Assembly: GCA_030264375.1 (NCBI GenBank)
Contig: JASCQW010000132.1
Coordinates: 122,422,472-122,486,471 of the forward strand
Origin: Carcharhinus longimanus
Taxonomy: Eukaryota
Direction of reading: 5' to 3'
DNA length: 64,000 nucleotides
Of the stretch, positions 19,060 to 62,967 are shown one piece after another. The position numbers were made by a program, and so were the translations under genes. The stretch's first letter is position 1. Each line of letters opens with the position of its first letter. The notes under the pieces are model-generated. The model had not been told where the DNA came from, ran no database searches, and saw nothing but the letters and a program-made list of their open reading frames with translations.

Positions 19060-21470
19060 AGATGTTAATTAAACATCTTTCAATCATCAGCAAGTGGCAC
19101 TTGTTAAGTGATAACCTATTCACTGAAGCTCACTTTGGGTTCTGCCAGAGCCACACAGCTCCTGACCTCATTACAGTCTTGGTCCAAACACGGTCAAAAG
19201 AGCTGAAAAGCGACGAGGCAAGAGTGATTGCCCTGGATGTCAAAACTGCATTTGACCGAGTATGGCATCAAGGAGCCCTGGCAACACTGGAGTCAATGGG
19301 AATCAGAGGAAAATCTCTCCACTGGTTAAAATCATACCTCGCACAAAGAAAGTGTTACAACCAAATGAAGAGAAGTTAACTCACACAACTCTATCCTGCC
19401 TCCTTGATTAACCACAATCAGGGGTGGATTTACAATGAATCACATCTAGGCACAGGGCTCCGACCAATGGGAAAGCTAAGGGCCGGCTAGTGTGTTTTGG
19501 CACCAATCAGAGCCTGATAACTCTGCATTTGCTCATTGCCTACCATCAGGCAATGCAGAGCGATATCAGATTCTGGGTTGAGCCCCCTTAGAACAGGAAA
19601 ACAGACTGGTCTGAACATTGATGAACAAGAGGCAACTAGGTGAGGAGGGAGAGAGGTAGAAGGTCCTGGGTTTTACTTTTGTGAAATGAAGCACATCCAG
19701 CAGGTTTCTCAACCTAGGGCTGAGGGCAGGCCAGCCAGCAACATTGAGGCAAGGCACGAGGTGCTGGGCAAAACCCACAAGCCAAGGTGAGTCAGCCAAT
19801 CATCAGCCATTGAGCAGTGAAGGCAGCAGGCGAGGTGGTGACTCAACCCAGCTAGAGCAGAGGGCAGGCCATTCATTAACAGGGAAGTGTAAGGCAGCAA
19901 ATCAAGCCTTACCAGAATGAGGAGATGTCGCGCGAGGCAAGAGGCTGCCATGAAAACCCCAGGCGAATGATGTTAATGAGATTGTGAGAATGGGAGAGCG
20001 TGAGGGATGGGGGTTGGGAAGCAAAAGTGTGAGTATGTTGGTGGGAGGGATTCCCTCCATAAGGTTAGATGAGGGAATACTTGCTGATCATTGTACAATG
20101 CTCAAAACCATTCGTGACGCCTTAGATACTAAAGAGGCCTGTGTCCATAAGCAACAAGACCGTGGCATTCAAATCATAAAGATGCCAGACAAAGACCACC
20201 CCCAAGAAGAGAATCTAGCCATCTCTCCTTGATGTTCAGCAGCATCACCATTACTGAATTCCCCAATCTCAACATTCTGGGACTTACCATTGAGCAGGAC
20301 ATAACTGGTTCCTGCTGTATAACTAGTGTCACCACAAGAGCAGGTCAGAGATTAGGATTTATGTGAAAAGTAACTGACCCCCACTCCCGCCAAAGACTGT
20401 CTACAGAGCATAAATCAGGAATATNNNNNNNNNNNNNNNNNNNNNNNNNNNNNNNNNNNNNNNNNNNNNNNNNNNNNNNNNNNNNNNNNNNNNNNCGTGA
20501 TGCACTGCATCTTGTAGACGGTGCACATTGCTGCTACTGTATACAACACCAGTATACAGTAGCAGCAATGTGCACCATCTACAAGATGCAGTGCATCACG
20601 CAACTCAGGAAGCCTCCTTTGAGAATACCTTCAAAACCTGCCAACTCCAACAACTAGACGGGCGGTATAGAATCATTGAATACCTTTAAGGTAGGTAGAT
20701 TTTTGACCACCAAGGGAGTCAAAGTTTACCGGATGTCGGTGAGAATGTTGAAGCATCAATCAGGTCAGCCATTATCTTATTGAATGGCAGGGCAGATTTG
20801 AGGGGCTTTTTTTCTCTATTCATTCTTGAGATCTGGGTGTCACTGGCTGGATCTAACTGTCTTCCACCGAATGAATTTCAGAAGCCATCTTTATTTTAAA
20901 GAGTCAACTACATTGCTGTGGATCTGGAGTCCCATGTAGGCCCGACCAGATAAAGGTGGCAGGTTATCTTCCCTAAAGGACATTATTGAACCAGTTGGGG
21001 CTTTACAATAGTTTTTTCATGATCATCATTAGACTTTTAATTTCAGATTTTCATTGAATTCAAATTTCACCATGGTGGGATTTGAACCCAGCTCCCCAGA
21101 GCATTACCCCTGGGTCTCTGGATTACTAGTCCAGCAACATTATGCCACCACGTCCCCTGAATGGCCTACTCATGCTCTGAATTCATATGTTTGCCTATTC
21201 ACCCAGATGCTGGAAACATCACCACATGCAAAGTCCCCTCTAAGCCACATACCATCCTGACTTGGAAATATATCACCATTCCTTCATTGGCACTGCGTCA
21301 AAATCCTGGAACTCCCTCCCTAACAGCACTGTGGGTGTACTTACACCGCATGAATTGCAGCTGTCCGAGGTAGCTCACCACCACCTTCTCAAGGACAGTT
21401 AGGGATAGGCAATAAATGTTGGTCAAGCCAGTGATGCCTATGTCCCAAGAAAGAATAAATTAACAAAAAA
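19060..21470 (+). mobile_element. Fragmented second CR1/L2-group LINE family (RT and 3' end) with insertions
   Basis: HFGFCQSHTAPDLITVLVQ..VIALDVKTAFDRVWHQG (RT); 3' end GGCAATAAATGTTGGTCAAGCCAGTGATGCC..AAGAATAAA near 21410-21460. Confidence 0.7.
20815..21160 (-). mobile_element. tRNA-derived SINE (family C)
   Basis: Minus-strand B box GGTTCAAATCC; body CCTTTAGGGAAG..CTACATGGGACTCCAGA; related to 44580-44830 and 38450-39003. Confidence 0.65.
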
Positions 21471-21732
21471 AAAGCCTTACTTCTATAGCAGGCCTGCCTT
21501 AGGTCATGGGAAAACCCAGTGCTGGAAGTGCAAATGTATCCAATTGCAGATATTTTTCACTGTGTCTGGTCCACCTGAAGGCAACAGCGGTGAGGTGGAA
21601 GTTTCCATTCAAAATGGACTGATATTTTCTGTTCATATGAAATCTGTACTGCAGCATGCTGTGTGGTGTATTCGCTAGCCCTTTAAAGTCTATTGTGGAT
21701 ACTGTTTCTATTTTGTAGGGTTGGCAACCCCA

Positions 21733-22734
21733 ATGAAAATGGACACAAATCCTCTGGTTTCTACTGCGGCAAAGGATGGAAACTCGAGCGCAAACTGCAC
21801 CATTCTGAGGAAATACCTAGTCCCACTCATTGCTTTAGATACCTGCCCGCTGATTGACAGAAAGTTGTCGATAATCCTCTCAATCCTCTCTTACATCTTC
21901 AGCCCAGCCGGAATCTTCATTGGCCTATTCCAAGTCATTTATATGTTCAGGAGAACAAAAGCCTGGACCATTATCCAAACGTTAAAGCTAAATTTGATAT
22001 TGGTAAGCCTAATCTCACTACTAGCTTACTTACCATGGACAATGTACGTCAACACTCAGTACAACTGGCAACTAGGAAAAATAATGTGCATTTGTACCAA
22101 CTTTGCCTATTACTTAGCAGAAACCGCAGAGCTTCTGTTCATCTGTGCTCTAAGCATGTTTACATATAACGCTGCTGTACGATCAATGACCCCCGTAAAT
22201 CTTCAAACAAAAAGGTCAACAGTGTTTTTAACAATACTGATATGGCTCCTGGCCATCGCAGTGGCTTTTATCGGTGTTTCAAACATATTGTACCTTATCG
22301 GGGATGACCAGTTTTACTGCGGTGCAATTGTCATCTCCAACATGACCTCCCTTTCTGGCTTGGGCTCATTGGTGCACTTATGCATTCTGCAGTTCCTGAT
22401 ACCATTACTGATCGTGATTCCATGTCATGTTAAGATAGTCGCGATGCTGTTTCTGTCTAACAAGAGGAATTCAACAGGAAAAACGAACAACTGCCTTAAA
22501 CCACAAGCAGCCGAGATAACTTCCTTCCTCCTCTTCTGGGTGTTTGGTCAATTATTACTCATAGTTTTCTTCATCATCTACCGGACAACAGTCAATTGCA
22601 GAAATGTGTGCTTTTGGGCAAAGCTGATCAATAATATCAATGAGGTGGCCCTGTTCCTGTCTGCCTTGAATGTCTGTCTCTGTCCACTGACCTATAAGTT
22701 ATATATTCGGGTTTTTCAATGCTGCTCTCCCTGA
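21733..22734 (+). CDS. Class A (rhodopsin-like) 7TM GPCR, chemokine-receptor-like scaffold with degenerate signalling motifs (atypical chemokine receptor / ACKR1-like candidate), 333 aa
   Basis: Intact ORF with seven hydrophobic segments; N-terminal sequons NSS/NCT; WQLG..C (ECL1-TM3), W4.50, ECL2 Cys, FLIP (P5.50), CPLTY; splice acceptor TTTTGTAG| at 21718 just upstream; ATGs at 21733 and 21739 (aaaATGg). Confidence 0.92.
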   Translation: MKMDTNPLVSTAAKDGNSSANCTILRKYLVPLIALDTCPLIDRKLSIILSILSYIFSPAGIFIGLFQVIYMFRRTKAWTIIQTLKLNLILVSLISLLAYLPWTMYVNTQYNWQLGKIMCICTNFAYYLAETAELLFICALSMFTYNAAVRSMTPVNLQTKRSTVFLTILIWLLAIAVAFIGVSNILYLIGDDQFYCGAIVISNMTSLSGLGSLVHLCILQFLIPLLIVIPCHVKIVAMLFLSNKRNSTGKTNNCLKPQAAEITSFLLFWVFGQLLLIVFFIIYRTTVNCRNVCFWAKLINNINEVALFLSALNVCLCPLTYKLYIRVFQCCSP

Positions 22735-23568
22735 GGTTGCAAGAACAATATAAACGGCTTGTGTTTGCTTGTGCTAGATTCTATGGAAAGACCTTCACCT
22801 ATTAATGCTGTTTCAGATATTTCTGCCAGTTTATAAAGCCTTCATTGTTTAAGGCACCAATTAAAAATGATGAGATTTGACCAGCCCTTTCAGAGTTAGA
22901 GGACATCAGCTGACTCTGTGGTTTGGCACCCAGATTGAGCTGTACTGAGGGAGTTGCTGGCAGAACAATCAAAAGAGACAGTTTCTATTGCTCATGTGCA
23001 CCATTCACCTGCTTTGACATAATGGTGACATCAGTTGACAAATATCCTACTAATCCAATATAACCTTTCAAATGGATAAATCCAGACCAGAATGCCATGG
23101 AATCCTAATGTGCCATCTTTTTAAACTGAAGAGAAAATGTCACTGTCAGGACAAGTCTTTCATGACAGCAGATCAAGAAGGTGGGTTAAGAAAATGCGAA
23201 GGTCACAGTTTGAGGGAAAGCAGCTTGGGTAACTATTTCCCTTATCTCCACATCTTTGGAAATCAAGGTTGGAAACTTTCCAAGATTGCCCTAGAATCTC
23301 CAACAAGTGAATGTTCATCAGCCAGGCACTGCTGCAATCAAAAACTGTCCATCAAAAATATATCTTCTTATTTTCTTTAAACAGTGTTTAATTCATTCAT
23401 TATGAACAAAACTTTGGACATGGGAGGACATGTAATGGAATATCCAGGAATACATTCAGGGAGATCTGATAACTATTCTTGGGGACAGCAGAAATCCTCT
23501 TCCTTCATGACCATTTGGATTGTGGTGTAGAAGAAAACATTCGTTTAGTTAAATTGAAAAATAAATAT

Positions 23569-24396
23569 TGTGATGATACTGTGCCTTTAAGGAATGTATT
23601 TGTGTCATGTATCATGTGCAGCATTTCTTTTAGCAGGCACTTCTATGTATCAGTGTCTGTACCCAGCAGCCTATTTTGTTACTACGCAGCATAATTGTTC
23701 TTAATTGCTAAAATGTTTGTTTTAATCTGGACTAATGCAATTCTGTTATTTTAATATTTTTTCCGTGAGGTTTTTCAAAGTTGAGCTTGATTCAGATTTT
23801 GATAGGAGAAGTCATGTGACTGGGAAGGACTAGGCTGACAGAGAGAAAGCCAGCTCACATAGTTTTTGAGATTTGTGGAGAGAAGAAATAGCACTTTTTC
23901 TCTCTCTGGATTTGGAAACTGATATCTGCCAGAAAATAGGTGTCCTTCTCTGAAGTTTTGCTGCTTGAAAGTAGATCTTTCTCTGCAAGCTGCTGTTTGA
24001 GTATCAAAAGGCAGGTGTCACTCTGTATCTGTCCAGAAGGATTTAAAGATAGAAATATAGCAAGTATGCGAGCATACCTGTTTTTGGTGCTAATTGTTCC
24101 TGAAGAAGGATTATGTCTATGGAGATATTGATTAAATTGAAACTATAGGGACAAACAACTGTTAAGAATTACAATTTGTCATGTTTAAATATTTTAATTG
24201 ATAAAAGTTATGCTAATTCTTTTTGTTCTATTCTAATTGTGTTTTTAAATAAAGTTCATTTCAATAAAAACTATCCGAGTCAGTGGAATCACATGGAGTG
24301 AACACATTATACTCACACTAATATCAAAATCAAATAAAGTTGGTGTCGAGGCTAACTTCATATTATATCTTGGAGTTTCTGATCTGGTTCCTAACA
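23569..24396 (+). mobile_element. Solo LTR (Gypsy-type)
   Basis: TGTGAT...CTAACA termini, perfect 4-bp TSD ATAT on both sides, internal AATAAA near 24248 and 24263. Confidence 0.8.
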
Positions 24397-24565
24397 ATAT
24401 GCTAATAATATGTTAACAATATATAAATGGAAAGGGCATCACAGAGAGTTAAGTTGGGCTGTGAAGTGCTTATTTTTAGTTGGTCCATAGCCACATATTC
24501 AAAATCTGGGTCCAAGATGCATGCATATTCTTCCAATTGTATGTACACAAGACCTCATAGGAATA

Positions 24566-27020
24566 TGTAATAATTTCACCAAGGCCTGATCTTTTGTCAC
24601 CAGTCGCTGTTTATTTACAGTGGTTGAGAACTGTTCATTGACCACAGCATGTAGATGAGACCTGAATCTGAGTCTATCGACTACTGGCCCAAGTGGAGCC
24701 ACCTGGTTTTAAAACCCCCACTGGGCAAGCCTCCATTCACCTCTTAATCAATAAGGTCCATGAGGAGATCTATTGATGATCCCCAGTGGCCATCAGAAAT
24801 CCTTCCCTCCTTAAGTCCATTTCTTCCCCCGCACACCACTGGGGGAGGGCTTCTCCGCTGCTTGCCGATTGGCCTGAGGTCGATTGGAGGCAGGACTGGA
24901 TCAGGGGATGTGATTTCTGTTTTCTCTGTTATAATTCCAGGCCATCCTGAAGTTCCTTATGTGGACTGGGTCTCCTATTGATATTCCATCTTCCCTCCAG
25001 GTTTAGGAAACGTTTGCATTATCTTGTTCAAAGCCTTTGTCCCATTAATAATTCTGCTGGGGAAATTCCTGTTGTAGTATGAGGGGTAGCTCTGTGGTAA
25101 AATAAAAGTCATAGCAGTTTGGTCTCTATGAATACCATGGCTGGAATTTTACCGGCACACCCACCCCAGGGCTGGCGAGGCTTGCAGAACGGCATTCTCT
25201 GTTGACCTCGGTGAGATCTTATGAGTCTTGGGGGGCAAGGTGGTAGAATTCCAGTATATAGGTTGCTTCTTCATGCTGAGCTTAAAAATCAGCGCCGCTC
25301 ATTTAGCCAATCCATTCAATAATGGGTGATAGTGTGCTGTCCTAATGTGTTTGACTTCATTGAACCCATGAAGGTCCGAAAGTCAGTGCTAAAGGCAGTG
25401 CTATTGTAAGAAACCAGGAGTTCAGATATCTCAGGCATGAAAAAATATTGTCATAGTTTCTTAATGGCAACTTGGGAAGCGTTGGGGTTCATCCGATGTA
25501 TCTCCAACCACTAAGAGTGCACATCAACCATGATCAGGAATATGGAGCCTAAAGAAGGCTCGGCAAAGTCAACATGCATTCACACCCAGGGCCAACCAGG
25601 CTACTGCTATAGATGTAGGGAGGCTGGGTGGGCGGGCGGGGGGACAGAATTTTGGATTTTCTTGCCATGATCCACACTGTTGAACCAAGTTGGTGCTGTC
25701 TGCAATAAGACTGGGCCACCAGACATAGCTTCTGGCTAACAATTTTCATCTTTGAAATCCCAAGGTGCCCATGGTGTAATTCCATTCATATCGGAGGATG
25801 ATGCCAACCTCAATGTCTTTCTTTCACCTTTCTTCATTTCATCTGAGGGCCATCCTCTGAATCACCCGTACAAAATTATGTTTTTAATTTTGATAGGATT
25901 GGGTCCTTTTGCGTCCAGTCCTTGAATTGCGTAGCAGACACTGGAATGGTACCTGGAAAACTGAAGCCATCATGACCTCTTCCACGACAGGTGTTGCAGC
26001 CGGACTTCCAGACAACGACTGACAATTCAGTGCTTCAGTGTTAGCTATCTGAGTCCCAGCGCAGTGCCAAAAGAAGTATTGATAAGCTGCCAGTAACAAG
26101 CTCCAAAACTGCATCCAGGTGGAAGCAATGGGGGTATTGCCTCGTCTTCATTAAAAACTTCCAGCAGTGGTTTATGATCAGTCACTATGAAAAAGCAAGT
26201 GCCATAATGAAAATTTTTAATGCTGAGGACCATTGCTTATCTCTTTTTGTCCATCCAGGAATACATCCACTCTGCATCCGAGGGGGTCCTGGATGTATAC
26301 TCACTGGGGTCTCTGTCTCATTTCTCCAGTGACGTACCAGTACTGCCCAAATCCCAGTAAGGGGAGGAATTGCATGTCAGTGAAGCCTGCTGACCAGACT
26401 CCAAAGGGCAGACGAGTGTACTAGTATAAGCCTTTGTGCATATCGTTTGAGTCGTAATAACTTTTAACCAAGTCTACTAATTCATTAAAGGTTTTGAAGT
26501 CACGGGCATTTGGGTAGGTCAAGCTTTTGATTACACTGAAAGTTGGGACCCCTACACGGTGTCAACTTTCTGTTTCTTATCTCCCTGAATATTGTGGCCT
26601 GAAAAAGGTAAGGCGTACGATCTGCGTATTGGGCCCTGGCTTCTATGCTTGTATTGTAGGCATCAAGTTTCCCGAAAAGAGGCATATTTCTTACTGGAAG
26701 GCTACTTGTCTTGATAGTAAAGATGGTCCAAAGGAAAGAAGAGATTTGCTTTTACTCCTCGTTGCCAATGTAATAATCTCACCAAGGCCTGTTTTTCTGT
26801 CACCAGTCACCTGTTTATTTATAGTGGTAGTTGAGTGTTGTTCAACAGCTACAGTGAGTAGGTAAGACCTGAGTCAATTGAAAGTTGGCTAAAGTAGAGC
26901 CAACTGGTTTTAAACCCCCTGCTTCCCTATTAGGCAAACCTCCACTCACCTAATTGGCAAGCTCATAGTCATCGAGGTCCACAGGGGGATCTATTGATGA
27001 TTCTCTATGGCCATCATAAT
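24566..27020 (-). mobile_element. Internally deleted Gypsy LTR retrotransposon with both LTRs
   Basis: Diverged LTRs about 24566-24798 and 26769-27020; PBS-like TGGCAACGAGG next to the 5' LTR; PPT AAGGAGGGAAGG; gag start MPLFGKLDAY; RNase H (VTDHKPL) and integrase zinc-finger (ELHHGHLGISKMK) remnants; MITE inserted at about 25138-25255. Confidence 0.85.
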
Positions 27021-56447: not shown

Positions 56448-56671
56448 TCAGACTTGACATGGTGAGCCTGTTGTAGTGGTACTGCCAGTCTCCTGGGCAC
56501 TAGGTGTAGTCACATTATCCTGCTGTTCAGTCTCAACCGATGGGCTAGGAGTGTATGGAGGGGGAGCATCACTCAAGCTGCAAGCATCATACCCTTCTGG
56601 TATAGAGAGGGCACAAGCTTCTTCAATACTTCCAGCTGCATATTCTGTATATGGTGGAGGTTTTAAATCAT
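56448..56671 (-). CDS. Last coding exon of a PPxY-motif single-pass membrane protein (VOPP1/TMEM92/WBP1-like)
   Basis: Acceptor TTTGTTTGCCTCTACAG|, phase 1; (D)DLKPPPYTEY...DAPPPYTPSP...SPCQV then TGA at 56450-56448. Confidence 0.88.
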
Positions 56672-57119
56672 CTGTAGAGGCAAACAAAAAGAAGTTTTCA
56701 GCATTAAAATCGTTATAGCACAAGATCCAGAAATTGGTCTCTCGTTATTTTTTAAAAGGATGGCAGTGTGATAAGGATGGAAAGTACAGGGGATTTTTCG
56801 TTAAATTTCCAGTACCTATATATAATTTATATATATATGTGGGTAGGTGTGTGTGCGTGAGAGAGAGAGAGAGAGAGAGCAAGCGAGCGAGACAGTGTAT
56901 CTGACCACATGAATTTAAACTCAAAATCCACTCTGATGTTTAGGAAATGTAGGCACAGCTTTCAGCAAGTTTCTTGCTTGCAGATCATCAGTTAAATATT
57001 GCTGTAACATTCTCAGTCCACTGAGCAGAAATGAAATTGCTTCTCCAATTGCATGCCTGTCTGATGATATATTTTGTTTCCTTTGAACTGCTGAACAAAA
57101 TATGTTAGATTTCAATGCA

Positions 57120-57300
57120 AAGTAAAGCTGCCATAGTCCCAGATGACCATAGGCTGCAACTGGTTGTGATTTAACCTGAGGGTCACCACATCTCAGGCAA
57201 GCCTTCGTGAATAAACTCAGCCGGTATAGGAACTGAACCTGCACTGATGGCATCGCTCTGCATCAGCAACCAGCTGTCCAATCAACTGAGCTAAACTGAC
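57120..57300 (-). mobile_element. tRNA-derived SINE (family D)
   Basis: Minus-strand head TTAGCTCAGTTG (A box) and GGTTCAGTTCC (B box); ends ..GGGACTATGGCAGCTTTACTT. Confidence 0.6.
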
Positions 57301-57905
57301 TCTGTGCACTATTATTGTCAGACGATGCATCAGTTAAATACTTGAGGTTACTTAACATGAATCATCATGTTAAGGAAGTACTGGAGTGGCCAGGCATGGA
57401 GAAACATACTACTGAAGAGTTGCCAAGGTGCCAATAAAATTAACATTTAAAATGAACTTGAAAGTCAATTTATTTTTATTTTTCAAATATAAATTGAGCC
57501 AACAAGTATCATTTCCAGACTCTGCTTCATCCATATCACTTGCCTGAAAACACTCAGGTTAACACTGTCCAGCTAACATAATAATCCCTTACATACAGCA
57601 AGTTAATTAATACGAGCAACAAGAATACTGGCTCCTCTGTATGGATGACAGATTAAATCTCAAAAGAAACGGACTCTGCTGTGGGAGAGCTTAGGAAGTA
57701 AAGTATGTGGTGACACAAAGACAGTGAGACTTTAAAAAAGCGTTGGCTGCTTTGGTAACTAAGCATGCCACAAAACTTCACATCTTGACAGCAGCTTTAC
57801 CCATTAAAGACAGATATCATTTGTTGAAAGAAAGCAAAACATTTAGTGAAAGAAATGAGATATTTGCATGAACTGAAGTTCCAAAAGTAGGAATTGATAT
57901 TGCAC

Positions 57906-58044
57906 CTGTTTGACCTCTTGACACTGCTTCATACGGAGGTGGTACCTCTAGTTGGCTGTAAGAAGGAGCAGGAGGTAGGGACCCAGAAGGTTCTCCGATG
58001 GAGCTGTCATCTTGACCACCATACCAACTATACCACATAGGATT
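57906..58044 (-). CDS. Internal exon of the PPxY membrane protein
   Basis: Acceptor TTCCTTTTATTGCAG|, phase 0; NPMWYSWYGG...LPPAPSYSQLEVPPPYEAVSRGQT; phase-1 donor G|GTGCAA (alternative G|GTCAAA with the exon ending at 57915). Confidence 0.85.
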
Positions 58045-58404
58045 CTGCAATAAAAGGAAATACTAATACCTTTCACTAAATTTCAATTTTCACCAGGAAG
58101 TTTTCAAATGGTTTTAAATACATTTAATTTATTCAACAAAAATGGAAATGTGCAAATACAGTAACAAATATAAAAACCCATACCTTTCACTACATTAAAA
58201 TCTTCAACTTCAATTTGGAATGATGGGAAATACAGTACTCATGAGACTACTATCTTTCAAACATTCAGATTTAGCTTTAACCTTTCACTGCTAAATTTCC
58301 AATATGAAATTTTTGAACATATTCAAATCACATCTTGGAATGCTATTAAAGTAGACTAATTGCTCTCCAGGTTGTGTTTTCCTAGCAACACGCAATACCA
58401 AGAA

Positions 58405-59262
58405 TGTAACAAAACCAACACGTTAGAAGCCACGGCCATTTCAAAAAGCATTTCACAGGATGAGTATCCAATAAGAGATTTGCAGGTTTAGACAGACGAG
58501 AAGAATACATGATACTAATAGGAATCATCTTAGTTAGACAATTGTTTCATCAAGGGGAGGCACACATATGTCTTTTTTAGAGCCACTGAAGCAGACCAGA
58601 AGACTACATCATCCTGTTATAGGAAACACCTTAGTGAAACGACTGAACCATCAAGGTGAGGCATTGATGTGCTAATTTGTGAGAGCCACAGAAGCCGAGG
58701 GGACAGACAGCAAATATACAGAGAGAACAATCAAAGGGAAAAATAGTATAATTGCCAACAGTCGGGGAAGCAGTGGAGGCAGATTCCACCTAGCAGCCAG
58801 TTCCAACGAACAGACAAAGGCAAAAATGCGGAAACCTTTGTGGAGGCCGTTAAAATTATATCTTTGCTGAGCCAAGGAGAGATGTTTCCCAGAATAACTC
58901 CTCAATTGTGTACAGTGTGGTAACTATAAGCTAGCCTTTACTTAGGGATTTATTGAACTGGAGGCTATTTGGGAAGAGGAAAGACATGAAAGAGTTCAGA
59001 TCTCAAATATACTTTAGATTAAAAGGGGTAATTTCCACATAAACTGCATGTGTGTTGAGTAGTTCCTATATGTAACTGTCTTAGATCATTATAGTCCTGT
59101 TTGTGAATAAGTGTTTTTTCTCAGTTGTAATAAGTAGTCTTTAATAAGTGTTATACTATGACTGGGCTCGTTACCTTCTCACTGGGCCTTGGACCTGACT
59201 TCTCACAACTGGTGTTCCACATTGTGACACCCTTGCAGACAACATCAGTCGGGTTCATGACA
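58405..59262 (+). mobile_element. LTR-like element in an intron
   Basis: TGTAAC...ATGACA termini, AATAA motifs in the 3' part; no clear TSD. Confidence 0.45.
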
Positions 59263-59344
59263 CTGGTTGCAGAGCTCAGACGAAATAATGCTGTAGACAC
59301 ATTATTTATTACAACTGATGAGGTGTTCTGGCATCAGATCAAAC

Positions 59345-60050
59345 ATGAATAAGGAAATTTCATGTGATCACCATCTACCAGCCTCCCTCAGCTGATGACT
59401 GCTCCACATTGAACACCACTTTGAAGAAGTATTGAGGATGGATAGGTCACAGAATGTACTCTGAATGGGAACTTAATGTCCAACAACAAGATGGCTCAAT
59501 AACACCATGACTGACTGAGCTAGCCAAGTCCTGAAGAGCATTCCTGCCAGACTGGTTCTGTAGTTGGTACTAAAGCAACCAACGAACAAGGAGGAAAAAC
59601 CTACAAGACCTTGTCCTCATGAACCTAGCTGCTGCAGATCCATTCATCCATGAAAGTACTGATAGGAGTGACCACCATATAGTTGTGGAGACAAAGTCCT
59701 GTCTTCACACTGAGGATGGTGGAGACGATGGCATAGTGGTATTGTCACTGGACTAGTAATCCAGTGGCCCAGATTAATGCTCTAGAGCTTGGGTTCATAT
59801 CTCACCATGATAGCTGGTGGAATTTAACACAGTCGTGTTTTTTTTAATTTAAAAACCTCTACTGTGTTGTGTGGCACTACCACAGTGCTAAACGGGACAA
59901 ATTAAAAGGTCTAGTAACACAAACTGAGCATCCATGAGGTTGATCATCAGCAACAGCACAATTGTACTTAAACACAACTTGTAACCACATCGCAGGTCTC
60001 TCATTCTACCATTACTATTAAACCAAAGGATCAGCCCTAGTTCAAGGAGG
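59345..60050 (+). mobile_element. Second LINE family endonuclease fragment
   Basis: ICHLPASL../WDLMSNN (GDFN region, degenerate), DLVLMN, RSDHHIV (SDH motif). Confidence 0.55.
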
Positions 60051-60249
60051 CGGGGACAGATTTAAGATAATTGTCACAAGGGCCAGTGAGGAAATGAGAA
60101 ATTGTTTCAAAATTTTGCACAGTGAATTGGCATGATCTGAAAGAATAGTGGAAGCAAAAAATTATTAGTAACTTTCAAACGGGAATTAGATAAACTGTCA
60201 AAAAGAAAGAACATTACGATGATGGGGAAAGAGTGAGGAATTAGGACCA

Positions 60250-60775
60250 ATTGCGGGAGGGCGGGTGACAGCACCAGAAAGAGAAAGGGGCGCCAGAGAG
60301 AAATGTAGAGAGAGGGAGAGAAAGGAGGTGCAGCGGTGCAAGAGGGAGAGAAAGCGGGCACAGGGGAGCGAGATGGAGACAGAAAAGGTGGTATGCATGC
60401 GGGCGCGAGACAGTGAGAGAGAGAGAAAGGCAGTACCGCAAGACAGTGAGAGAGAGAGAAAGGCAGTACACGAGACGGTGAGAGAGAGAGAAAGGCAGTA
60501 CGCGAGACGGTGAGAGAGAGAGGAGAGAGAAAGGGGGCGTGTGAGAGAGAGAGACGTAGACAGAGAGAGGGGGGTGCGCCATAGAGAAATGGAGAGAGAG
60601 GGAGCGCAGTGGTGCAAGAGGGAGAGAAAAGGGGCATGGGGGAGCGAGATGGAGAGAGAAAGGGGTACACACGTGCGCACGAGGGAGGGGAATAAGAAAG
60701 GCGGTATATGAGAGGGTGTGAGAGAGGAAGAGTGAGAGAAAAGGGGCATGTGGGACAGAGAGAGACACACACATG

Positions 60776-60836
<61 letters not shown>

Positions 60837-61190
60837 TGAGACAGAGAGAGAGGGAGTGAAAGGGGGTGCAGCAGTGCAAGAGGGAGAGAAAGCGGGCATG
60901 GGGGAGNNNNNNNNNNNNNNNNNNNNNNNNNNNNNNNNNNNNNNNNNNNNNNNNNNNNNNNNNNNNNNNNNNNNNNNNNNNNNNNNNNNNNNNNNNNNNN
61001 NNNNNNNNNNNNNNNNNNNNNNNNNNNNNNNNNNNNNNNNNNNNNNNNNNNNNNNNNNNNNNNNNNNNNNNNNNNNNNNNNNNNNNNNNNNNNNNNNNNN
61101 NNNNNNNNNNNNNNNNNNNNNNNNNNNNNNNNNAGAACGAGTACCAGAGCGAGACAGAGAGCAAGAAAGCGAGAGCACAAGAACGTGAGA
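60250..61190. repeat. GA-rich compound microsatellite/minisatellite containing a gap
   Basis: (GA)n run at about 60784-60833; recurring units GTGCAAGAGGGAGAGAAAGCGGGCA and GTGAGAGAGAGAGAAAGGCAGTAC. Confidence 0.9.
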
Positions 61191-62568
61191 GCTGTCAGGC
61201 CTCTGTTGCTGGAGGCAGCCTCAATGCAGCCACGCTCCCCCCCGCCAAACCAACATCATTCGAAAATGTAGCCCCCACTGCCTAGACCAATTGCGCCACC
61301 CAGTATAATCGGGCCCCTCTCCCTCCCCCCTCAACACATGCAGAGCAGCAGCAGCCCCCACCCCCACCTCTCCCAATCAGGCCACCCAGGCCTGGCCCTG
61401 CCCTCTTCAGGCCCTTCCTCTATGCCCACTTCAGGCCCTAGCCTCTGGCTGTCTCTGGTGGGCATTGCCAAGGTGCCAGGCTGGCACTGCCCAAGGAGCA
61501 CCCGAGCTTGCCCTCAGCCTCCCTGGGGGGGACCTCAATGGCCTCTGGGTCTACCGACAAAGGCAATATGACTATTCCTAGTTCATGGGGAGCAGGTGTT
61601 TTCCTCGCCAGAGGAAAGTTCTCTCAGCGAGGTCATAAAAGCAAGTGAGCTCAGATGATTGAGCGCTAGGCTTGATAAACAAATGTAAATAAGTATTTAA
61701 ATAAATTCAAATAATTTATTCAGTCTCTCTCTGGAAACAGGCAAGAGGCTGAACATGCCAGAAATCCAGATCTAGTAAGATTGTGAGCGGCGAGAAATTA
61801 GATATGATCTTAAATGTCTTGGCTCTGACATGATTTTACCAGCTCACTCCACAAATCAATGGGCGGGGCATGCCAGTAAAATTATGGACACAGACTTTGT
61901 GCCAATAAGTTGGCAAGGGATGGAAACTATGGTCAGGAAACTGATTACAGAAGCATGATACTAGTTAAGGTTCATAAGAAAATCAACAATGATTTTTTTT
62001 TAAATCAGCAACACATACTGAGAAGTCAACCACTAAAGCAAACCTGAAACCACAGCCAATTACTTTAACATGCACATGACAACATGTATTCCAACTCAAT
62101 AATAGCAAATGCTTTTTTAAAATTATTAAATATTCTAAAGATTAGTAGAAATTAATGAAACAAATTTCACAAAAGACACACAAACTGGTACATTTTTATT
62201 ATTCAATTCTAAAAGCTAAACGAAGACTCATATGATCATTGACTTAAAACTGGTAGGATCTATTTTGATTTCAGCAGTATTGCCAAAAATTAACCTTATG
62301 CAACATCGGCATAGAAGATTGAAGTTGTCAATCCCAGTGAAGCATTGGGGGCAATAAGGAACAAGGAAGCAGCAAGACTGTATTGGCCTTCCTTCAGCCC
62401 TCTTCCCTCCCACCTTCATCATCCATTCTGAATATTGTAGTTAAACTTAATTTAAATGCTTCTGCAGTTACATCCTTGCCTTAAGGTTAGGCTGCAAGAA
62501 TTTGCATTTTGTTCAAATTACATGCAACTCTTAGCTTTACAAGGAAGCAGAAAATCATGGTCACTTAC

Positions 62569-62728
62569 ATTTTGCCGTTCACAGAGTTGATGTAGGTAGG
62601 CTCTGCCCCCAACAATCACTATCTGGGCATTCCGTGGATTGCTCAGGTAAGCATCCAGTTGTCGCTGCCTTGAGCGATACCAGCAGATGTAGAAGAAGAT
62701 TTTGACAATAATAAATATAATCACTATT
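62569..62728 (-). CDS. TM/juxtamembrane exon of the PPxY membrane protein (5' exons lie beyond the window or were not found)
   Basis: Acceptor CTTTCACTCCCAACAG|, donor AAT|GTAAGT phase 0; IVIIFIIVKIFFYICWYRSRQRQ (TM end + basic stop-transfer). Confidence 0.85.
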
Positions 62729-62967
62729 CTGTTGGGAGTGAAAGAACATTCATTAGGAAATGACATTTTAGTAGTAAACATGGAACCTCCAGTAAAACAA
62801 TTTGTTTAATCCTTTAAATTGCATAAAACTTCTTGAAACAACAGAAAAGCATTATAAAATGGACTATATTCTATTACATACACCATAAGCTTGAGGAATA
62901 TCTTGTCTATTGCCAGCCTCACAAAGTAATTCAATATTTCATTGATTTATAATTTAATGTCTTAGCT

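Follow-up and report, generated by a model that had tools for sequence, protein, structure and literature searches.

An intact shark class A receptor without most activation motifs is probably not a Duffy orthologue

The receptor encoded in the 64-kb stretch of DNA that we analysed (G000:C132:122.42-122.49 Mb; hereafter the window) is real, is unusual and is very probably not Duffy. By its sequence, it belongs to an unnamed vertebrate orthogroup in which sharks have a single gene and whose lamprey and bony-fish members keep the canonical motifs of signalling receptors. Our preferred explanation, at about an even chance, is a ligand-binding, transducer-uncoupled decoy, which would have arisen within sharks out of a receptor that signalled, and independently of ACKR1.

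Coding frame and genomic neighbourhood

Positions 21733-22734 (+) translated into 333 codons followed by a stop, with no internal stop codon, and this was the sole long non-repeat frame among the 30 ORFs of at least 120 aa in the window. The product matched Pfam 7tm_1 (E 1e-16, 61.7 bits vs a cut-off of 30.5), so the open 333-aa ORF described in the initial annotation was confirmed. An AlphaFold model from a 58-row alignment had seven helices at a pLDDT of 83.8, and a single-sequence fold (pLDDT 45.9) was set aside. The 7tm_1 match, the seven helices, the C3.25 and ECL2 cysteines, and TM-scores of up to 0.76 against solved GPCRs identify a class A fold; Foldseek searches with the model returned generic class A matches that did not discriminate between receptor groups.

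The single-exon coding sequence probably occupies 21739..22734 (+, 331 aa), beginning at the second ATG; the ATG at 21733 gives 333 aa. The first ATG is CTG in two of four related organisms' contigs, and the orthologous catshark protein begins at the position of the second ATG. A splice-acceptor-like site (21700..21718, +), made of a pyrimidine run and an AG at 21717-21718, lies 20 nt before the second ATG and suggests an untranslated exon upstream. Behind the stop codon, 33 further open codons (22735..22836, +) bear a weak likeness to the tail of the coelacanth protein, with p about 0.05 in one of eight comparisons, and are a possible relic of an ancestral C-tail. Conserved read-through of the stop was rejected, since a 2-nt insertion breaks the post-stop frame in two of the four relatives' contigs. 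Selenocysteine at the TGA was rejected as well, SECIS families having no match in 20500-27000; the RNA-family scan of this interval gave 21 matches, all to microRNA models below their gathering scores and at one hairpin. This hairpin, at 20496-20600, is near-perfect, with 49-nt arms that are 98% complementary and a 7-nt loop; it adjoins a stretch of N and lies 1.1 kb upstream of the receptor ORF. A Pfam scan of 14 short ORFs of the window found nothing above the cut-off.

Two neighbouring genes were recognised. Exons of PIK3R4 (Vps15) were found at L022:588-977 (+) and L024:292-408 (+), about 60-80 kb to the right of the window, which places this gene about 100 kb to the right of the receptor. 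Within the window, an orthologue of si:dkey-118j18.2, a small PPxY-rich single-pass membrane protein, occupies 56454..62805 (-, outer limits approximate), with three exons near 56.5, 57.9 and 62.6 kb and several PPxY motifs. The piece of its last exon shares 95% identity with Heterodontus and 66% with coelacanth, a conservation far above that of the receptor. Between two of its exons, an open stretch at 59134-59349 (-) that annotated homologues do not have is possibly an alternative exon, or nothing. A motif scan for P-type ATPases found none within 200 kb, and the Pfam PF00689 matches on the same contig are 15 Mb distant.

Loss of activation motifs

We aligned the receptor with 69 other shark receptors, and the results showed that 7 of the 8 scored activation positions are missing from it. 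Among the 69, which were drawn from the top-scoring loci when the genome was searched with four GPCR queries and do not make up the entire repertoire, 38 lacked none of these positions, 25 lacked one, six lacked two, and none lacked more; the earlier statement that nearly all activation motifs are gone is therefore correct. Ballesteros-Weinstein numbers were counted from alignment anchors, and the group labels of unnamed shark rows were taken from their tree position beside named rows and from our recognition of the sequences.

The receptor has G1.50, S2.50, FTY in place of D/E-R-Y at 3.49-3.51 (22159..22167, +), H5.58, FWVF at 6.47-6.50 and CPLTY at 7.49-7.53. The replacements listed previously (D2.50 to S, DRY to FTY, Y5.58 to H, FWVF and CPLTY) all reappeared on the alignment. 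A change of GN(1.50) to GL was right as to the loss, the residue at 1.50 being G, and wrong as to the letters, since 1.49-1.50 reads I-G. W4.50, P5.50, W6.48, P7.50 and Y7.53 are retained. The C-tail, put at about 12 aa before, indeed has 12 residues after Y7.53, whereas the comparison receptors have at least 25 and a median of 49.

An unnamed vertebrate family

A profile-free scan of 1.84 billion representatives with the receptor returned 66 matches, eight of which were set apart from the rest (E 1e-20 to 1e-150; the next match at 1.5e-8). These eight come from catshark, coelacanth, grass carp and minnows, sturgeon, paddlefish, frog and lampreys. Their automatic names are GPR34-, AT1-, P2Y1-, CCR3-, CCR5- and CysLT2-like, so that one family stands in the databases under at least six different names, which this grouping corrects. 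In the reverse direction, the coelacanth member found the receptor ORF as its best match in this genome (8.5e-46, vs 4e-25 for the next of 111 matches), and the lead of 20 orders of magnitude indicates a single-copy gene within the reach of that search. The catshark orthologue, named 'probable GPR34' in RefSeq, is 73% identical over 331 aligned residues without a gap. It is the one annotated shark orthologue found; for the neighbour gene si:dkey-118j18.2, database entries exist from six further cartilaginous fishes and from coelacanth. No amniote was among the eight representatives, and the query was divergent, so that a loss in amniotes is no more than possible. When a word index was searched with the family alignment, two of 8000 candidates came back, neither of them new, and protein-cluster searches with the catshark protein led to generic 7tm_1 clusters.

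Phylogeny, which the initial annotation had proposed as a check, was inferred twice with IQ-TREE under LG+G4, from 45 and 46 rows, on subsets picked by us that contained no ACKR1 sequences; with long branches and a simpler model, deep placement is provisional. The eight members formed one clade in both trees (100/99 and 100/100). The second tree made the family sister to the purinergic group (97/86), and the first left its placement open. The family lay outside the chemokine-receptor clade of 15 (100/99); a sister relation to this clade had p-AU values of 0.115 and 0.113. The check thus bore out a clade of its own, and a chemokine-receptor sister group was compatible with it. One clade, the reciprocal best match, and the common possession of C22, P31 and C38, a YCG-type ECL2, the ECL3 C-x3-C and E7.36 join the receptor to this orthogroup.

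Near-invariant residues in the family are P31, C38, the W-x-x-G of ECL1, C119, P151 (3.57), W171 and C196-G197, together with P224, C289, C293, E304 (7.36) and P318. All eight members carry two cysteines in the N-terminus and two in ECL3, whereas two ECL3 cysteines occur in none of the 69 other shark receptors. The TM3-ECL2, N-terminal and ECL3 cysteines that had been described are present as C119, C196, C38 and C293; a second outer pair, C22 and C289, is conserved in the family and was missing from that description. C22 and C38 lie at 21796..21846 (+), with C289 and C293 as their predicted partners. At position 7.25, which C293 occupies, a cysteine pairs with an N-terminal one in GPR34 and DARC (PMC10850092, PMC11349380), and a C38-C293 disulfide is predicted on the model of C46-C299 in GPR34 (PMC10850092). 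From C22 and C289 we infer a third outer disulfide. A disulfide from the N-terminus to ECL3 had been read as a sign of a chemokine receptor; this does not hold, because GPR34 has one, as do 15% of class A receptors by the figure given in PMC10850092.

The proline of TM2 is at 2.59 in six of the eight members, vs 2.58 in 69/69 shark receptors. Position 7.45 is N in seven members and S in the frog, and is H or R in 18 of the 69 shark rows; R6.55 is absent from all eight. Two blocks stand out in the shark protein. One, aa 94-131 (22012..22125, +), covers outer TM2, ECL1 and outer TM3; it is identical to catshark at 35 of 38 residues and holds the family-typical P2.59 and C3.25 plus a shark-specific E3.36. 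The most constrained block is TM6-ECL3-TM7 (aa 255-322; 22495..22698, +), with C289-x3-C293, N7.35/E7.36 and N7.45 as well as the changes of P6.50 to F and of 7.49 to C.

The number of missing activation positions is 0 in lamprey, sturgeon and coelacanth, 1 in carp, 2 in paddlefish, 3 in frog, 5 in catshark and 7 in this shark. Lamprey and bony-fish members retain D/E-R, D2.50 and P6.50. FTY is found in catshark too, whereas the D/E-R is retained in the lamprey, bony-fish and frog members. Catshark, with five of the eight positions lost, retains N1.50 and Y5.58, so two of the losses in this shark are recent. With no switch lacking in lamprey, sturgeon and coelacanth, a family ancestor with normal signalling is the most likely, and sharks would have lost the switches secondarily. 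On this alignment, motif losses within the family are limited to sharks and, in part, to the frog. The frog member (Gastrophryne, KAM9323927.1) carries H in place of D2.50, C in place of W6.48, S in place of P6.50 and S at 7.49, with D-R retained, a possible parallel erosion independent of sharks.

A literature search, largely outside subscription journals, turned up nothing published on the family or on shark receptors lacking the switches. Among the many GPCR clades without a human orthologue that Rinne et al. (2019) named are GPR204 and CYSLTR3 (PMC6504862). GPR204 spans lamprey, gar, fishes, coelacanth and amphibians, much as our family does; the main text of that paper has no match for sharks, and no motif loss was noted in it (PMC6504862). 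By its species range, the family may already bear a provisional name from these clades.

Selection on the receptor gene

An explanation that we consider unlikely, and that survives best among the alternatives to a decoy, is that the receptor is losing its function under relaxed selection, its frame being kept partly by the slow mutation rate of sharks and a residual folding constraint. Substitutions among close relatives were counted by hand on 40 of 82 rows, on which nonsense changes were also judged. There were 37 in-frame substitutions, 23 changing and 14 silent, and omega was about 0.6-0.76 overall, not significantly below 1 (p 0.11-0.26). Over aa 3-254, with 22 changing and 9 silent substitutions in this partial sample, omega was about 1, as decay would have it; over aa 255-322, a region chosen post hoc, there were no changing and four silent substitutions (p 0.005-0.01), which speaks against decay. 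On the dN/dS check suggested earlier, the frames of the relatives were thus intact on the rows covered, and omega was near 1 over aa 3-254. The stepwise motif loss that continued after the split from catshark (N1.50, Y5.58, P3.57), the early stop with a possible tail relic downstream, and an identity to catshark of 73%, vs 80.5% for one control pair from the same two lineages, are also consistent with relaxed selection. The record of an orthologue in one shark only fits both loss and missed annotation.

Other observations argue against decay. In neutral simulations to the catshark distance, from which indels were left out, 15 and 19 of 2000 sequences were stop-free, less than 1%, and the 331 residues align with catshark without a gap. 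The four related organisms' contigs, one run of them without 22697-22729, have no indel inside the ORF, and the only indel among the relatives falls 23 nt after the stop. TM6 is identical to catshark at 28 of 32 residues and TM7 at 29 of 30. With boundaries that were set after the regional identities were known, the outer half of the receptor is identical to catshark at 117 of 147 residues (80%) and the inner half at 88 of 132 (67%; p=0.02); in 8/8 control pairs, two of which come from bony fish of the family, the inner half is conserved as well as the outer or better.

Proposed decoy function

The initial annotation had offered a novel decoy receptor as one of its readings, and this part is plausible, with support from the loss of motifs and the retention of the outer face. 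According to the decoy reading, the receptor would still fold and bind the ligand of the family at its outer face, where the disulfides C119-C196, C38-C293 and C22-C289 would hold a pocket with the acidic E7.36 and E3.36 and no R6.55. Such a pocket would suit a cationic peptide or small protein, the likelier kind of ligand, better than a nucleotide or lysophosphatidylserine; a chemokine is conceivable too. Without R3.50, D2.50 and P6.50, the proline of TM6, ligand binding would leave the G-protein cleft closed, and a receptor that has also given up its sodium site (2.50, 3.39 and 7.49) and its tail would bind without coupling. The 12-residue tail, with one serine, would offer little for arrestin, and bound ligand would be sequestered or cleared by constitutive turnover. 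ACKR1, which is without these motifs, scavenges without coupling (PMC11349380); DARC serves here as a precedent for decoy behaviour, not as a relative of the receptor. Besides the omega values, the continuing erosion and the single annotated shark orthologue, it speaks against a decoy that TM6-TM7, the block with the highest conservation, takes in residues of the inner half. More tentatively, and at somewhat under an even chance, we propose that an ancient three-disulfide family, apparently lost in amniotes, turned into a pure decoy in sharks and perhaps separately in frogs.

It is rather improbable that the receptor signals non-canonically, either constitutively through the loss of the sodium site and the ionic lock or as a heterodimer partner. 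W6.48, P7.50, Y7.53 and P5.50 are kept, the 45 residues from 5.50 to 6.48 make TM5-TM6 of normal length, inner TM6 and TM7 are conserved, and sodium-site mutations can raise basal activity (PMC6037435), all of which would fit such signalling. However, R3.50, which contacts the alpha5 helix of the G protein in GPR34 (PMC10850092), is absent in both sharks, ICL1, ICL2 and ICL3 are only 60, 60 and 33% identical to catshark, and the tail is very short.

Comparison with ACKR1/Duffy

The first reading of this gene was that of an ACKR1/Duffy-like receptor. We consider it very improbable that the receptor is a shark orthologue or ancestor of ACKR1/Duffy acting as a chemokine scavenger. A similar loss of motifs and the cysteine pair from the N-terminus to 7.25 do speak for it: DARC lacks most of DRY, CWxP and NPxxY, has a P-C motif and has a short TM5 and TM6 (PMC11349380), and the receptor likewise lacks most of the first three motifs. 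That no amniote appeared among the eight representatives, with DARC recorded in 6 of 18 vertebrate genomes (PMC3568907), also speaks for it; the origin of ACKR1 is given as open in PMC10792014, and the AU test did not reject a chemokine-receptor sister relation of the family. In job the two are likely alike, by analogy, each binding without coupling.

In most other respects the receptor differs. Chemokine receptors are recognised by H or R at 7.45, with A3.57 alongside (PMC6037435), whereas the family has N7.45 and P3.57. ACKR1 clusters apart from other GPCRs (PMC10792014), whereas the family profile matches AT1R at 1e-43. The N-terminal P-C motif is present in 0/8 family members and in 7/18 shark chemokine-type receptors, and the shortening of TM5 and TM6 is absent, 45 residues comparing with 41-44 in shark chemokine-type receptors. 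Chemokine receptors have an acidic, tyrosine-rich N-terminus, which the receptor does not: the family has 3-4 acidic residues there in 8/8 members, vs 5-12 in 18/18 shark chemokine-type receptors, and 0-3 tyrosines. The receptor also has the extra cysteine pair, and its bony-fish and lamprey relatives keep canonical motifs. ACKR1 is syntenic with CADM3, and the neighbours found, both on the right of the receptor, are PIK3R4 and si:dkey-118j18.2; CADM3 was not recognised in a rough search for exons over the flanking 200 kb in each direction, a search that overlooked some exons known to be there and identified no gene to the left.

Searches of solved structures agreed with this. ACKR1 was absent from three segment searches (32, 2 and 5 matches, all listed) and from the best 60 PDB matches of the whole protein (of 262), of the family profile (of 851) and of the frog member (of 390), in a set presumed to include the ACKR1 entry 8JPS. 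It was also not among the best 50 of at least 500 Foldseek matches. The segments put forward earlier as echoes of ACKR1, which the segment searches included, found no ACKR1 counterpart, and one of the ACKR1 segments given there has H where the receptor has N. With no ACKR1 among the matches listed, with N7.45 and an unshortened TM5-TM6, and with canonical orthologues in lamprey and bony fish, the Duffy-like assignment is not supported, and the receptor would not push the origin of ACKR1 back to chondrichthyans as had been suggested.

Elsewhere on the contig, at G000:C132:9.02 Mb, lies a chemokine-type receptor with D-M-Y for DRY, H7.45, E7.39 and a tyrosine-rich N-terminus. These residues recommend it, ahead of the receptor of the window, as a candidate atypical chemokine receptor of sharks, and it looks ACKR2-like. 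CCBP2 is absent from the last eight genome columns of the listing in PMC3568907.

Comparison with GPR34 and other class A receptors

Against the family profile, AT1R scored 149.6 bits, B2R 143.8, P2Y1 143.8, CCR1 142.5 and GPR34 141, so that the AT1, B2 and CC chemokine receptors of the gamma branch are about equidistant from it. The family shares N7.45 and P3.57 with the non-chemokine receptors of this branch and differs from the branch in its own clade, its two N-terminal and two ECL3 cysteines, and P2.59 in 6/8 members. With the GPR34/P2Y12-type group, to which the best pairwise match belongs, it shares C-P before TM1, C7.25 and N7.35-E7.36, and from this group it differs in W6.48, P5.50, a mostly present P2.59 and the missing R6.55.

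That the receptor is a divergent copy of the lysophosphatidylserine receptor GPR34 has next to no probability: GPR34 is the best single-sequence PDB match (E 9e-16) and the only match of the TM6-7 segment, has N7.35/E7.36 in common with the receptor, and gave the catshark protein its RefSeq name, but GPR34 and a GPR34-like gene sit on other contigs of this genome, grouping with GPR34 was rejected for the shark pair (p-AU 1e-74) and for the whole family (p-AU 0.002), and R6.55, needed for the agonist response in GPR34 (PMC10850092), is absent throughout the family, on which grounds a paralogue was rejected. The receptor ORF was also absent from the 109 genome matches of a cod GPR34 query, named via its cluster. 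A cluster of at least seven P2Y12/GPR87/GPR171-type receptors lies at G000:C162:10.25-10.48 Mb, with another match pair at 10.404 Mb in two pieces, and is presumably larger than the human cluster.

Significance for the family

ACKR1 lacks recognisable relatives that signal (PMC10792014), which has left the origin of non-signalling receptors an open question. The orthogroup described here constitutes a natural series of uncoupling, from canonical members with 0-2 of 8 positions missing through the frog with three to sharks with five and seven, and its signalling orthologues provide a route to the ligand and to the study of receptor uncoupling. If the explanation by relaxed selection is true, the receptor would be a modest case of gene decay in a shark. 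If it is an independently evolved decoy, it would represent a separate origin of an ACKR1-like scavenger, and the signalling orthologues of carp and coelacanth would make both its ligand and the steps of its uncoupling directly testable.
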